A stretch of DNA of 64,000 bases from an uncultured Burkholderiaceae bacterium (GCA_966251135.1 CBINKC010000003.1:9139-73138), one strand, 5' to 3'. Positions 27,913-33,035 are shown, counted from the stretch's first letter. Numbers and translations: made by a program. The notes: generated by a model from the letters alone, not told the origin.

Positions 27913-29658
27913 ATGATGGATGTCGTCCACAAGCCGTCCGACATGTTCACCGCGAACATGCCGGACCATGAGCTCGAGCGCCGACGCTTCACCTGGGCCT
28001 ACGCGCGCCGCGGCCTGGGCACGCCCGAGGGCGGCCTCAACATGGCGCACGAGGCGGTAGAGCGACACGCCCGGGGCACGCTGGCCGGCAAGACCGCCTT
28101 GCGCTGGATCGCCACGTCGGGCGCCGCACGCGATATTTCCTACGGCGAGCTCGATGCGCTGTCCAGCCGATGCGCCAACGCCCTGTCGGCGCTGGGATTG
28201 CAGGCGGGCGACCACGTGTTTCTGCTGTGCGGCCGCATACCCGCGCTGCATGTGGCCATGCTGGGCGCGCTCAAGCACCGCCTGGTCGTCACCCCGCTTT
28301 TCTCGGCCTTCGGACCCGAGCCCATCGCCACGCGCATTGCGCTGGGCGCCGGCAAGCTCCTGGTGACCACGGCCTCGCTGTACCGGCGCAAGGTCGAACC
28401 CATCCGCCGCGACGTGCCCGCGCTGAAGCACGTGCTGATCGTGCGCGATGACGACGGCCCCCTCCCTCCGGGCACGCTCGATTTCGACGAGCAACTCGCC
28501 GCGGCCAGCCCCCTCTACGCCATTGACCGCACCGCCCCCCAGACGCCTGCATTGCTGCACTTCACCAGCGGCACGACGGGCAAGCCCAAGGGTGCGCTGC
28601 ACGTGCACGAGGCCATCGTGGCGCATGTCTGCACCGGCCGGCTCGCGCTGGACCTGCACCCCGGCGACATCTACTGGTGCACGGCCGACCCCGGCTGGGT
28701 CACTGGCACTTCGTACGGCATCCTCGCGCCGCTGGCGCTGGGCGTGACCATGGTGGTCGACGAAGGCGACTTCGACGCCGAGCGCTGGTACGGCATCTTG
28801 CAGCGCGAGCGTGTCAGCGTCTGGTACACCGCGCCCACCGCCATACGCATGATGATGCGCGCCGGCGTGGCCGCCGCGAAGGCGCACCCCTGCCCTGCCC
28901 TGCGCTTCATCGCCAGCGTGGGCGAACCGCTCAACCCGCAGGCGGTGCACTGGGGCGTGGAGGCGTTCGGCCTGCCCATCCACGACAACTGGTGGCAGAC
29001 CGAGACCGGCGGCATCATGATCGCCAACTACGCCTGCATGGACATCCGCCCCGGCTCCATGGGCAAGCCCATGCCGGGCATCGACGCGGCCATCGTGAGG
29101 CGCGAGCCGGATGGCGGCGTGAAGGTGATCGAGACGCCCGGCGTCGAGGGCGAGCTGGCCCTGCGCCGCGGCTGGCCGTCGATGTTCCGGACCTACCTCA
29201 ACGACGAGGAGCGCTATCGCAAGTGCTTCGCGGGCGACTGGTACCTCACCGGCGACCTGGCGCGCTGCGACGAAGACGGCTACTTCTGGTTCGTGGGCCG
29301 CGCCGACGACATGATCAAGTCTTCCGGTCACCTCATCGGCCCCTTCGAGGTGGAGTCGGCGCTCATGGAGCACCCGGCGGTGCACGAGGCGGGCGTGATC
29401 GGCAAGCCCGACGCGATGATCGGCGAGGTCGTGAAGGCCTTCGTGGCGCTCAAGCCCGGCGTGGAGCCCACCGAAGCGCTGAGGCGCGAGCTGCTGGGCT
29501 TCGCCCGCCAGCGCCTGGGTGCGGCGGTAGCGCCCAAGGAGATCGCCTTCGCCGACAGGCTGCCCAAGACGCGCAGCGGCAAGATCATGCGGCGCCTGCT
29601 GCGCGCCCGCGAACTCGGCCAGCCAGAGGGCGACACCTCCACCCTGGAGCCCGCATGA
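27913..29658 (+). CDS. acsA: Acetate--CoA ligase (AcsA, Bacillus-like type)
   Basis: [59 protein letters not shown]. Confidence 0.9.
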
Positions 29659-30620
29659 ACCTCACTCCCGAGGAGACCCGCGAGCTGCTGCGGCAGATGC
29701 TGCGCATCCGCCGGTTCGAGGAGGCGTGCGCCGAGCTGTACGGCGCCGGCAAGATCCGGGGGTTCCTGCACCTGTACATCGGCGAGGAGGCCATCGCCGC
29801 GGGCGCCATGCCGGCGCTGCGCGCAGATGACAGCGTGCTGGCCACCTACCGGGAACACGGCCACGCATTGGCGCGCGGCGTGCCCATGAATGCGGTGATG
29901 GCCGAGATGTATGGCAAGCGCGAAGGCTGCAGCGGCGGCCGCGGCGGCTCCATGCACTTGTTCGACGCGACCCGGCGCTTCTACGGCGGCAACGCCATCG
30001 TCGCTGGCGCGCTGCCCGTGGCCGCGGGCTTCGCGCTGGCCGAGCGCATGCGCGACACCGACCGCATCGCGGCCTGCTTCTTCGGCGAAGGCGCGGTGGC
30101 CGAGGGCGAGTTCCACGAAACGGCCAACCTCGCCGCCCTGTGGCGGCTGCCGCTGCTCATGCTGTGCGAGAACAACCTCTACGCCATGGGCACCGCCATC
30201 GAGCGCTCCGAGTCCGACACCGACCTGTGCGCCAAAGCCGAGAGCTACCGCATGCAGGCCGCCTCGGTGAATGGCATGGACGTGCTCGCCGTACGCGACG
30301 CCACCCGTCGCGCCACGGCCTACGTGCGCAGCGGCGAAGGGCCGCTGTTCCTGGAGCTGCGCACCTACCGCTTCCGCGCGCACTCGATGTTCGACCCCGA
30401 GCTCTACCGCGCCAAGGACGAGGTCGAGGCATGGAAGCAGCGCTGCCCCATCCGCTCGCTCACGGAGCGCGCCGAGGAGGCCGGCATCTCCATCGAGCTG
30501 CCCGCGCTGGAACGCGAGATCGCCGAGGAGCTGGCCACCGCCATCGCCTATGCGGAGGCTGGCACGCTGGAGCCGGTGGGCACGCTCACGCGCCACGTCC
30601 TGGCCGAGGCGCCGTCATGA
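29655..30620 (+). CDS. pdhA: Pyruvate dehydrogenase-like E1 alpha subunit
   Basis: [31 protein letters not shown]...ENN ThDP motif, [11 protein letters not shown]; ATGA overlap with acsA. Confidence 0.9.
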
Positions 30621-31591
30621 GAACAACCTACCGCGATGCCTTGCGCCAGGGCCTGCGCACCGCCCTGCAGTCCGATCCGCGCGTGTTCCTCATGGGCGAG
30701 GACGCCGGCCGCTACGGCGGCACCTACGCCGTGAGCAAGGGCTTTCTTGAAGAGTTCGGCGACGCCCGCGTGCGCGACACGCCGCTGTCGGAATCGGGCT
30801 TCGTGGGCTGCGGCATTGGCGCGGCGATCAACGGCATGCGGCCCATCGTCGAGGTGATGACGGTCAACTTCAGCCTGCTGGCGCTGGACCAGATCGTCAA
30901 CAACGCGGCCACGCTGCGCCACATGTCGGGCGGGCAGTTCGGCGTGCCGGTGGTGATCCGCATGACCACGGGTGCCGGCCGGCAGCTGGCGGCGCAGCAC
31001 TCGCACAGCCTGGAGGTCTGGTATGCCCACGTGCCCGGGCTGCGCGTGCTCGCGCCGGCCACGCTGGAAGATGCACGCGGCATGCTGCTGGCGGCGCTGC
31101 GCTGCCCCGACCCGGTTGTCATCTTCGAGCACGCGATGCTGCTCAATGTGGAGGGCGATCTCGAAGGCGAGCCGGCGCTGGTGGACATCGACCACGCCTT
31201 GGTGCGCCGCTCAGGACGCGACCTGAGCCTCATCACCTATGGCGGATCGCTGCCCAAGTGCCTGGCAGCAGCCCAGGAGCTGGGCGCGGCCGGCATCGAG
31301 GCCGAGGTGATCGACTTGCGCAGCCTGCGCCCGCTCGACACCACCGGGCTGTGCGCCAGCGTGCGTCGCACGCGGCGTGCCGTGGTGGTGGACGAGGGCT
31401 GGAAGACCTGCGCGCTGGCCGCCGAGATCATGGCCACCCTGGTCGAGCAGGCCTTCTACGACCTGGACGCGCCGCTGGCGAGGGTGTGCAGCGCGGAGGT
31501 GCCGATCCCCTATCCCAAGCACCTGGAAGACGTGGCCCTGCCCAGCGTGCCGCGCATCGTGCAGGTTTCGCGCGAGGTGGTGCAGCGATGA
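30617..31591 (+). CDS. pdhB: Pyruvate dehydrogenase-like E1 beta subunit
   Basis: [43 protein letters not shown]. Confidence 0.9.
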
Positions 31592-32748
31592 TCGAACTGC
31601 GCATGCCTTCGTTCGGTGCCGACATGGACAACGCCGAGTTCGTGAAGTGGAACGTCGAGCCCGGCCGGCCCGTGCGACGCGGCGAGATCGTCGCCGTGGT
31701 CGAGACGCAAAAAGGCGCCATCGATGTGGAAACCTGGCAGGACGGCACCGTGGCGCGGCTGATCGCCGAGCCGGGGCAGCGCATTCCGGTGGGCCAGCTG
31801 CTGGCGGTGTTCGCGGGAGAGGGTGAAGACTGGCGGGCCGTTGCGGCGGTGGCACCCGCTGCAGGTGCTGAACCGGCCGCGGCCGCGCCCACTCCGACCC
31901 CGGCCTCAGCGGCGCCAGGACCTGCCGTGCCCGCGGGCGAGGCGGCGCCGATACGGGCATCGCCGGCCGCCCGCAAGCATGCGGCCGAGCTGGGCGTCGA
32001 CCTGGCGCGGCTCGCCCGCCGCAAGGGTGTGGAGCCGATCACCCTCGAAGACGTGGAACGCGCCGCCGCCACGGCCACATCGCCCACCGAGAGCATGCGC
32101 GCAGCGATTGCCGCCGCCATGGCCCGCTCCAAGCGCGAGATCCCGCACTACTACCTGGGCACCGAGCTGAACGCCGAGGGCGCCTTGCGCTGGCTGGAGG
32201 GCTACAACGCCCGGCGGCCGGTGACTGAACGGGTACTGTTCGCCGCGCTCGCAATGAAGGCCATCGCCAGGGCCGTGCCCGAGGCGCGGCAGCTCAACGG
32301 CCGCTATGTCGATGGCCGCTTCGATCCCTCCAAGGCCGTGCACCTGGGCGTGGTCACTGCGCTGCGCGGCGGCGGCCTGGTGGTGCCCACTGTGCATGAT
32401 GCCGATCGGCTCTCGCTGCCTGATCTCATGGCCGCGCTGCGCGAGGCGTTGTCGCGCGCTCGCAGCGGAAAGTTGCGCAGCTCCGACCTGGCCGATTCGA
32501 CCCTCACCGTCACCAACCTCGGCGATCTCGGCTGCGACACCGTCTATGGCGTGATCTACCCGCCACAGGTGGCGCTGGTGGGCCTTGGGCGCGTGATGCC
32601 GCGTCCGGTGGTGCAAGACCAGCTCGTGGTCGCGGCCCGCACCATCCACATCACCCTGGCCGCCGATCACCGCGCCAGCGACGGCCTCATCGGCGCATCC
32701 TTCCTGGCCGCAGTGCGCGAACGGCTATCGCATCCGGAGGATCTGTGA
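31588..32748 (+). CDS. pdhC: Dihydrolipoamide acetyltransferase E2
   Basis: Lipoyl domain (VETQKG), E3-binding domain (ASPAARKHA), catalytic TNLG and DHRASDG. Confidence 0.88.
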
Positions 32749-33035
32749 GCACCGTCACCCAGACCATCCGCCAGGCGATCATCGACGCCGTCCTGCAGAT
32801 TGCGCCCGAGGCCGATTTCGCGCGAGTGGATGCGAAACGTTCGCTGCGCCAGCAACTGGACATCGACTCTTTCGATTTCCTCAATCTGCTGATCGACCTG
32901 CACGCCAGGCTGGGGGTAGAGATCCCCGAGGCGGATTACGCGAAAGTGGACACGCTGGAGGCGATGGAGGGGTATCTGGCGGCGCGGGGCTCCGAAGGCG
33001 AGCGCTGGTTCGCCGTGATGTCGTCGCGTGCGTGA
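32745..33035 (+). CDS. Acyl carrier protein
   Basis: LDIDSFDFLNLL phosphopantetheine-Ser motif, GVEIPE; GTG start overlapping the E2 stop. Confidence 0.88.
   Translation: MSTVTQTIRQAIIDAVLQIAPEADFARVDAKRSLRQQLDIDSFDFLNLLIDLHARLGVEIPEADYAKVDTLEAMEGYLAARGSEGERWFAVMSSRA

Follow-up and report, generated by a model that had tools for sequence, protein, structure and literature searches.

A 64,000-nucleotide stretch of DNA from an uncultured Burkholderiaceae bacterium (GCA_966251135.1 CBINKC010000003.1:9139-73138; hereafter the window, by which we mean the whole stretch) contains five chained genes that encode an AMP-forming acetate--CoA ligase (AcsA), the E1 alpha, E1 beta and E2 proteins of a pyruvate dehydrogenase (PDH)-type complex and a free acyl carrier protein (ACP). 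This cassette is a conserved mobile unit, not a local oddity. It keeps its gene order across many phyla, is often plasmid-borne, and the genes around it are in essence those of the mycobacterial DosR regulon and the Burkholderia cenocepacia lxa locus. The closest partner of the ACP appears to be AcsA rather than E2. The reading that we favour, with a probability of roughly 0.4, is that the cassette is a horizontally mobile acetyl-thioester module of hypoxia or dormancy in which the ACP would be S-acetylated.

The protein families involved are all known, and what appears to be new is their combination: a PDH-type complex with AcsA in front and an ACP behind, without E3, spread on plasmids and lodged in dormancy islands. 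We know of no described PDH-type complex that has its own ACP together with an obligatory AcsA, and a full-text literature search found no paper describing an AcsA-PDH-ACP cassette.

Gene content, order and spread of the cassette

The first-pass annotation, made from the sequence alone, had described five genes joined by 4-bp stop/start overlaps and ending in a free ACP, and this is borne out by domain models and junction sequences (Table 1). The four junctions read ATGA, ATGA, ATGA and GTGA, and the start codons match public gene calls for the same organism. AcsA scores 873 bits against the NCBIfam acetate--CoA ligase model NF003313 (cutoff 729), E1 alpha 430 bits against the PDH E1 alpha equivalog TIGR03182 (cutoff 394), E1 beta 379 bits against the PDH E1 beta subfamily model NF006667 (cutoff 321) and the ACP 29 bits against PP-binding PF00550 (cutoff 20.8). 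The E3_binding domain (PSBD) of E2 reaches 26.6 bits (cutoff 23.7); E2 as a whole lies below the PDH E2 equivalog cutoffs (182 bits vs 445 for TIGR01349), and its resemblance to the AcoC model PRK14875 is confined to the lipoyl part, the catalytic domain being 2-oxoacid_dh. RefSeq labels the genes of related cassettes as acsA, pdhA, alpha-ketoacid dehydrogenase beta, dihydrolipoamide acetyltransferase family protein and acyl carrier protein.

Table 1. Positions of the cassette genes and of other features in the window
Feature	Position	Strand	Remarks
acsA, AMP-forming acetate--CoA ligase, B. subtilis AcsA type, 581 aa	27913-29658	+	NF003313, AMP-binding + AMP-binding_C
E1 alpha, thiamine pyrophosphate (TPP)-dependent subunit of PDH-type dehydrogenase, 321 aa	29655-30620	+	PF00676 (E1_dh), TIGR03182
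E1 beta, 324 aa	30617-31591	+	PF02779 Transket_pyr + PF02780 Transketolase_C, NF006667
E2 dihydrolipoyl acyltransferase, 386 aa	31588-32748	+	Biotin_lipoyl, E3_binding, 2-oxoacid_dh
Dedicated ACP, 96 aa	32745-33035	+	PP-binding PF00550; phosphopantetheine serine S42 in LDIDSFDF
FNR/Anr-like palindrome TTGATCTGCGTCAG	27579-27592		2 mismatches to TTGAT-N4-ATCAA, 335 nt before AcsA start
38-aa hydrophobic small open reading frame (ORF)	27755-27871	+	Annotated as a gene in public assemblies of the organism
DUF326/Csp copper-storage-like gene	27172-27510		Upstream of cassette, followed by 400-nt spacer
Heavy-metal P-type ATPase	24863-27100		Upstream of cassette
Three tandem 91-nt palindromic units like repetitive extragenic palindromes (REP)	33035-33307		Start at ACP stop codon
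Universal stress protein (USP) + cytochrome c	33303-34233	Opposite to cassette	Downstream of REP-like units
369-aa protein	34416-35525	+	No Pfam, NCBIfam or PDB sequence match
Wax ester synthase/diacylglycerol acyltransferase (WS/DGAT), 446 aa	7494-8834	+	HHCIGDG; 20 kb from cassette

E2 consists of a lipoyl domain (K42), an Ala/Pro linker, the PSBD at about residues 122-143 and a catalytic domain with DHRASDG at 360-366, and its closest solved structures are mitochondrial-type E2p cores. In an alignment of 66 E2 homologues, the lipoyl lysine is kept in 60/62 and the catalytic histidine of DHRxxDG (H361 here) in 65/67, and the PSBD core SPxAR..A.ELG.D is conserved. For AcsA, the best PDB match is 9g79/9g7f, a 572-aa AcsA of the B. 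subtilis type (552 bits), and the acetate pocket WWQTETGG with its Trp, the A10 lysine (PxTRSGK) and R532 are invariant in 64/64 members of the family. The arginine aligned with Salmonella enterica R584, which contacts the 3'-phosphate of CoA, is kept in 64/64, and the residue equivalent to R194 is basic in 60/64. These conserved basic residues could also dock an acidic ACP, and as sequence features they do not discriminate between CoA and the ACP as acceptor.

Related loci were gathered in three independent ways: by a look-up of the ACP, by tblastn of E2 against plasmids, and by an ACP-profile scan with one genome per species, which gave at least 592 confirmed matches (at least 600 species genomes listed), 80 of them kept. 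Near-duplicate loci were removed before counting. Among the non-redundant loci (numbered L below), 66 have the order AcsA-E1 alpha-E1 beta-E2-ACP, five have AcsA and the ACP only, and 18 lie on contigs that end upstream. No locus breaks this pattern, and the ACP is present at every E2-seeded locus inspected. Profiling of the five genes therefore upholds them as a unit, since genes and order are kept, with no exception, in 66/66 loci that have sufficient upstream sequence. The 4-bp overlaps are likewise frequent in the family (44/64 loci for Acs/E1 alpha, 40/68 for E1 alpha/E1 beta and 50/77 for E2/ACP).

The proteobacterial carriers include Burkholderiales, Halomonas, Steroidobacteraceae, Methylocystis, Azospirillum, Ciceribacter and Leisingera, and further carriers are found in Desulfotalea, Desulfuromonadales, Myxococcota, Acidobacteriota, Chloroflexota, Gemmatimonadota, Verrucomicrobiota, Planctomycetota, Nitrospirota and, among the Actinomycetota, Streptomyces and Rhodococcus. 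Experimentally tractable carriers include Paraburkholderia phymatum STM815, Rhodococcus sp. DK17, Cupriavidus and Halomonas. Across phyla, identity to the window proteins is 55-84% for AcsA and E1, 38-72% for E2 and 34-73% for the ACP, a pattern that points to horizontal spread under strong constraint. Many copies are plasmid-borne, with unrelated flanking genes, and this variation of the flanks between genomes indicates that the cassette is autonomous. In the cassette of Leisingera plasmids, a single 665-aa fusion protein combines E1 alpha with E1 beta (L012:6987-8984). On a large conjugative plasmid of the sulfate reducer Desulfotalea psychrophila, a lipoate--protein ligase gene directly follows the cassette (L010:10526-11536), and this plasmid appears to supply its own lipoylation function.

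The absence of lpd, ketosynthase and phosphopantetheinyl transferase (PPTase) genes nearby, also reported by the first-pass annotation, held in disulfide-motif and Pfam scans. An E3-type redox-disulfide motif, searched for with a PROSITE-like pattern, was found neither in the 64-kb window nor within ~10 kb of any of ~90 related loci, and Pfam scans of the ORFs from ~0.9 to 42.5 kb of the window revealed no ketosynthase and no PPTase. E3 is often common to several complexes and encoded elsewhere. In L004, a flavodoxin-like gene (7350-7856; 168 aa, weak PRK07116/Flavodoxin_4/5 matches) lies between E1 alpha and E1 beta; the same insertion is seen in the Burkholderiales cassettes L022, L028 and L034, and the Streptomyces cassette has a gene with a flavodoxin domain in its vicinity (L013:1997-2509). 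A flavodoxin-like protein could serve as an alternative electron outlet for a complex without E3.

The ACP and its association with AcsA

The ACP belongs to a large family. A search with the window protein gave 877 relatives at 90% clustering, the named ones being mostly from Burkholderiales, and the Rhodococcus ACP as seed gave ~3,500 proteins (clusters at 90% identity). When the ACP profile was run against 1.84 billion cluster representatives, 955 clusters were obtained at E<=1e-10, nearly always of stand-alone proteins. The Asp-Ser motif is present in 89/89 ACPs, and this invariance of the phosphopantetheine serine argues that the thiol arm is used chemically. Other hallmarks of the family are the APEAD and IPExDY motifs and an acidic character (median pI 4.4). 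An AlphaFold (AF2) model of the window ACP (pLDDT 85) has a four-helix fold in which S42 opens helix II (42-56), and its best PDB matches are the ACPs of type II fatty acid synthases and of mitochondria (TM 0.6-0.74). The last ~15 residues, which abut the REP-like array, are unconserved and modelled with low confidence; the C-terminus of the window protein (SEGERWFAVMSSRA) is unlike that of near-identical public copies, which have 91 aa, and for this reason an exact look-up of the ACP gave no entry, whereas that of E2 did. Housekeeping AcpP normally supplies the octanoyl groups for lipoylation. We considered a similar supplying role for the cassette ACP and judged it unlikely, because a lipoate-protein ligase gene follows the ACP in Desulfotalea only.

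The short forms are informative about the partner of the ACP. AcsA and the ACP occur without E1 and E2 in L051, L061 and L085 (at ~8100-10800), L074 (3109-5672) and L067 (205-3018), and an ACP without AcsA was never seen among the sorted loci. The persistence of the ACP with AcsA when E1 and E2 are absent points to AcsA, or its regulator, as the closest partner. A gene for a 175-aa GNAT protein adjoins short forms and follows the full cassette in L080 (10443-10958); overall, a Pat-type GNAT lies beside the ACP in 8 loci, ~10% of the cassette loci. The solved relatives of this GNAT are Pat catalytic domains (Pat 9isq/9it0, S. lividans PatA 4nxy and M. tuberculosis Rv0998 4ava). Pat-type lysine acetyltransferases acetylate Acs and switch it off.

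Moreover, the two proteins are joined in a natural fusion, P0185, which consists of an N-terminal ACP and a C-terminal Pat-GNAT, and the fusion gene overlaps the gene for a 54%-identical AcsA in L101 (module at 8001-10449). P0162, P0174, P0196 and P0264 have a C-terminal region in common with P0185, the Pfam GNAT domain being detected in P0185 alone. Among the best 150 representatives of the ACP family, no E2-ACP or Acs-ACP fusion was found, and ACP-GNAT fusions were the only ones seen. The GNAT-ACP loading module of CurA is an acetyl-loading device in polyketide initiation, and Pat enzymes carry variable sensor domains. Taken together with the fusion, these precedents suggest that the ACP takes part in AcsA-centred acetyl chemistry or sensing; the fusion does not say whether the ACP acts as acetyl donor, acceptor or sensor.

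Surroundings of the cassette and the rest of the window

The genes that recur beside the cassette encode USPs, Hsp20/alpha-crystallin, CBS-pair proteins, nitroreductase, nicotinate phosphoribosyltransferase (NAPRTase), phosphoribosyl pyrophosphate synthetase (Prs) and other phosphoribosyltransferases (PRTases), as well as PGA_cap, AAA_33/zeta-like ATPase, RtcB/archease, GroEL, FtsH, phosphoenolpyruvate synthase (ppsA)/pyruvate phosphate dikinase (PPDK) and cation ATPases. The USPs, alpha-crystallin/Hsp20, nitroreductase, cation ATPase, NAPRTase, PRTase, PGA_cap and CBS proteins are those that recall the lxa locus and the DosR regulon. Regulators are also found beside the cassette, namely Crp/Fnr in Leisingera and a GAF-sensor kinase with a response regulator in Rhodococcus. 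The description of the B. cenocepacia lxa locus lists ackA and pta, suggested for fermentative pathways, and compares lxa with the DosR regulon, whereas a PDH and an ACP are not mentioned there (PMC3721108). We came across no publication that assigns the cassette to the DosR or lxa regulon.

The first-pass annotation had proposed a hypoxia-specific module behind an FNR-like promoter. The low-oxygen and dormancy neighbours, present in several phyla, and an enrichment of FNR boxes in the family agree with the first part of this proposal, whereas the promoter of the window itself is a weak case. FNR-like sites lie upstream of acsA in 30/64 loci (background 0.15 per 460 nt); in 14 of these loci a site has no more than one mismatch (0.02 expected per 460 nt), and many of the sites are located 60-110 nt before the start codon. 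The palindrome of Table 1 is the sole TTGAT-N4-ATCAA-like site upstream of acsA in the window; a near-identical box, TTGATCTGCGTCAA, is found at -76 in the related locus L028. The whole window has 20 FNR-like boxes against 7.7 expected, a number that no shuffle reached. One of them, at 34310-34323, separates the cytochrome c/USP genes from the divergently oriented 369-aa gene, and another, with 1 mismatch, lies upstream of OmpW at 36995-37008. A consensus scan found no sigma-70-like promoter and no intrinsic terminator at the operon.

The region is represented in four rhizosphere metatranscriptome libraries, whose contigs match the Csp and USP genes as well as the spacer, acsA, E1, E2 and the E2/ACP junction; for the Hydrogenophaga locus L083, no RNA runs were found. 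The contigs extend without interruption over 27158-28141, from the Csp/DUF326 gene across the 400-nt spacer to acsA. This may reflect read-through into the operon from upstream, or a transcription start site (TSS) further upstream than the FNR-like box implies. The contigs also span the 38-aa ORF, which may be the first cistron of the operon. This ORF is confined to the near-identical loci L007-L009 and missing from the other cassette loci, and it was dropped as a part of the cassette family because it is not conserved beyond near-identical genomes.

At the other end of the operon, the REP-like units have GGGCTGAGCTTGTCGAAGCCC / CTTCGACAAGCTCAGGGCGAACGG as their core and probably mark the operon 3' end or act as an mRNA-stabilizing structure. 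One metatranscriptome contig skips 177 nt (33034 to 33212) within the array, pointing to variation in the number of units. Further downstream lie genes for the 369-aa protein, a solute-binding protein, OmpW, hemerythrin and an ODP-type metallo-beta-lactamase-fold protein. The 369-aa protein has an HGDLRPEH...D.LEF pattern reminiscent of phosphotransferases of the aminoglycoside/choline-kinase fold and is the commonest neighbour outside the cassette, being found at 16 related loci (e.g. L001:11614-12663).

The window has ~67% G+C and a Gram-negative character, with genes for OmpW, a methyl-accepting chemotaxis protein and type IV pilin, and metagenomes of rhizosphere, roots and soil contain near-identical contigs. 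The WS/DGAT gene is followed by one for a Host_attach/baeRF_family12 protein (7494-9389 for the two, + strand), and baeRF12 is also found beside the Azohydromonas cassette (L004:10609-11055). Upstream of the metal ATPase (20184-24475) lie genes for a sulfotransferase, a chromate-transporter-family protein, a 335-aa protein with no match (22821-23828, - strand) and APS kinase, a possible sulfation module unrelated to the cassette.

Proposed function and competing explanations

In the mechanism that we propose, the module would be switched on when oxygen is limiting or growth stops. AcsA would activate acetate with ATP, and the lipoate-dependent PDH-type E1 alpha/beta-E2 complex would oxidatively decarboxylate pyruvate with a borrowed housekeeping E3, because E3 is never encoded with the cassette. 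Translational coupling would keep production of the holo-ACP in step with the enzymes, providing a private phosphopantetheine thiol that would most likely be S-acetylated, with AcsA itself, acetyl-CoA or acetyl-dihydrolipoyl-E2 as possible sources of the acetyl group. The resulting acetyl-ACP would make up a small acetyl pool apart from that of CoA and, in some genomes, could be passed to, or sensed by, the Pat-type lysine acetyltransferase that controls AcsA. In this scheme, the acetylation of the ACP, the loading enzyme, the direction of flux and the sink are what we infer. In concept, it resembles citrate lyase and malonate decarboxylase (CitD/CitC, MdcC), where a catabolic complex depends on a dedicated carrier thiol that an acetate-activating ligase has to acetylate. 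However, the CitD/MdcC carriers use 2'-(5''-phosphoribosyl)-3'-dephospho-CoA and a non-ANL ligase, whereas the cassette has an ordinary PP-binding ACP and an ANL-family AcsA; no citG/citX-type genes were seen near the cassette.

Concerning the individual steps, the first-pass annotation had also suggested a dedicated ACP for acetyl units, loading of the ACP by E1/E2, an acetyl exchange without E3 or NADH production and WS/DGAT as a sink. The first of these stands in part: the ACP is integral to the unit, and its fusions with Pat-GNAT support a link between it and acetyl transfer. Loading by E1/E2 finds no support, as the ACP stays with AcsA where these proteins are absent. The conserved PSBD, lipoyl lysine and DHRxxDG motif fit a normal complex served by the housekeeping E3 rather than an exchange without it, and WS/DGAT as the sink is not supported, its gene lying 20 kb from the cassette and not being a conserved neighbour of it.

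Several observations weigh against the acetyl-thioester module as we propose it. The acylation of the ACP and its role as a carrier are predictions from sequence and fold. AcsA is close to a genuine CoA ligase and E2 looks fully canonical, so that the two enzymes may just work with CoA. The cassette brings no conserved gene for a consumer of acetyl-ACP, a GNAT being present in ~10% of the loci. The FNR-like site of the window is weak and distant, and the metatranscriptome contigs carry no information on strand, TSS or oxygen condition and may reflect carry-over of DNA. The link with hypoxia is one of gene context, from which we infer hypoxic induction in the source organism.

A stronger proposal, which we regard as doubtful, is that the ACP replaces CoA altogether, as the acetyl acceptor of E2 and as the thioester substrate of AcsA, either in a closed pyruvate-to-acetate cycle with ATP formed from AMP and PPi or as a private pool that drives Pat-type acetylation.

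Among the competing explanations, an ordinary second PDH is a tentative possibility that has to be taken seriously. The complex, served by the housekeeping E3, and AcsA would both make acetyl-CoA under stress, and the ACP would be a regulatory or adaptor partner of AcsA, e.g. a sensor domain for control by Pat; cAMP, ACT or NDP-forming-synthetase-like domains regulate other Pat enzymes. The cassette does resemble the PDH with heterotetrameric E1 (PdhA/PdhB/PdhC, of the alphaproteobacterial/mitochondrial type and of Bacillus), the E1 alpha and E1 beta proteins passing the PDH equivalog and subfamily cutoffs, respectively, and E2 having one lipoyl domain, a PSBD and DHRxxDG, with the lipoyl lysine and catalytic His conserved. 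However, a housekeeping PDH differs in that the cassette has no E3 gene in ~90 loci, has acsA always before it and the ACP after it, resides in stress/hypoxia islands and on plasmids, and has an E2 well below the PDH E2 equivalog cutoffs. Regarding the AcsA side, the ligase retains the CoA-binding and acetate-pocket residues, and the ACP accompanies AcsA also where E1/E2 are missing and occurs fused or adjacent to an Acs-specific Pat GNAT. This is reminiscent of B. subtilis AcsA and its control by AcuA/Pat (9g79/9g7f; 9isq/9it0; 4ava), to which the cassette is similar by its AcsA, acetate pocket, A10 lysine and, in some modules, a GNAT alongside. In contrast to that system, the ACP stands between the partners or is fused to one, and most cassettes have no GNAT; we know of no such ACP arrangement in the described Acs/Pat systems. 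A purely regulatory ACP is also hard to reconcile with the invariant phosphopantetheine serine (89/89), with the ~90% of cassettes that have no GNAT nearby, and with the E2/ACP coupling in 50/77 loci, which suggests production in step with the complex.

Compared with S-acetylation of the ACP in such a stress module, a closed ATP-conserving fermentation of pyruvate to acetate seems unlikely. Here E1/E2 would acetylate the ACP and AcsA would run in reverse, replacing Pta-AckA without tying up CoA. The lxa locus of B. cenocepacia has ackA and pta but not the cassette (PMC3721108), as this explanation would have it. AcsA and the PDH-type proteins are strictly co-encoded by successive genes of one coupled operon, and genes of AMP- or PPi-releasing enzymes (Prs, NAPRTase, PRTases) and ppsA/PPDK, by which AMP is formed or used, recur beside the cassette. 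A precedent for the reverse reaction exists, as the AMP-forming Acs of Syntrophus aciditrophicus runs in that direction. However, the short form has AcsA and the ACP without the PDH-type proteins, the pathway would produce NADH where NADH is already in excess, no sequence feature indicates the direction, and CoA would chemically be as suitable as the ACP.

It is very unlikely that E1/E2 act on acetoin, or on another 2-oxo or alpha-hydroxy-ketone substrate, in an AcoABC-like manner, with AcsA salvaging acetate from the released acetaldehyde. B. subtilis acsA lies beside the acetoin-utilization acu genes, and E2 scores far under the TIGR01349 cutoff for PDH E2. But E1 alpha exceeds the PDH equivalog cutoff and E1 beta the PDH subfamily cutoff, the likeness of E2 to AcoC stops at the lipoyl part, and no acoR, acoX, aldehyde dehydrogenase or butanediol dehydrogenase gene is a conserved neighbour of the cassette; aco accessory genes were not found.

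Finally, a supply of starter or extender units for a lipid or secondary metabolite (quinocarcin/naphthyridinomycin-like), or for storage lipid made by WS/DGAT, is highly improbable: E1/E2-like proteins reportedly load an ACP and the window does have a WS/DGAT gene, but that gene lies 20 kb off and does not recur, plasmid copies of the cassette have unrelated flanking genes, no natural-product genes lie near the window cassette, and no nonribosomal peptide synthetase (NRPS), polyketide synthase, ketosynthase or acyltransferase gene is a conserved neighbour in ~90 cassette loci. The gene sets for tetrahydroisoquinoline antibiotics (QncN/L/M, NapB/D) do combine a TPP enzyme, a lipoyl-E2-like acyltransferase and a free ACP, and transfer the acyl group to the ACP and not to CoA. 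They belong to NRPS clusters, have a transketolase-like E1 that acts on ketose phosphates, and lack Acs. Compared by description, the cassette differs from them by its PDH-type E1, by an AcsA that is always present in the full form, by the lack of biosynthetic genes and by its occurrence in stress islands of many phyla.

The size of the ACP family, the carriage on plasmids and the DosR/lxa-like setting are the reasons why the cassette matters. The role of the ACP bears on how bacteria that are strictly or mostly aerobic handle acetyl units and energy during oxygen starvation and dormancy, a question that goes back to the definition of the DosR and lxa regulons, and the outcome may be a new use of a carrier protein in central metabolism or in the control of Acs by acetylation. 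If the ACP did replace CoA in these reactions, the cassette would represent a hitherto unrecognized carrier-protein-based, CoA-independent branch of central carbon metabolism in oxygen-starved, non-growing bacteria of many phyla.

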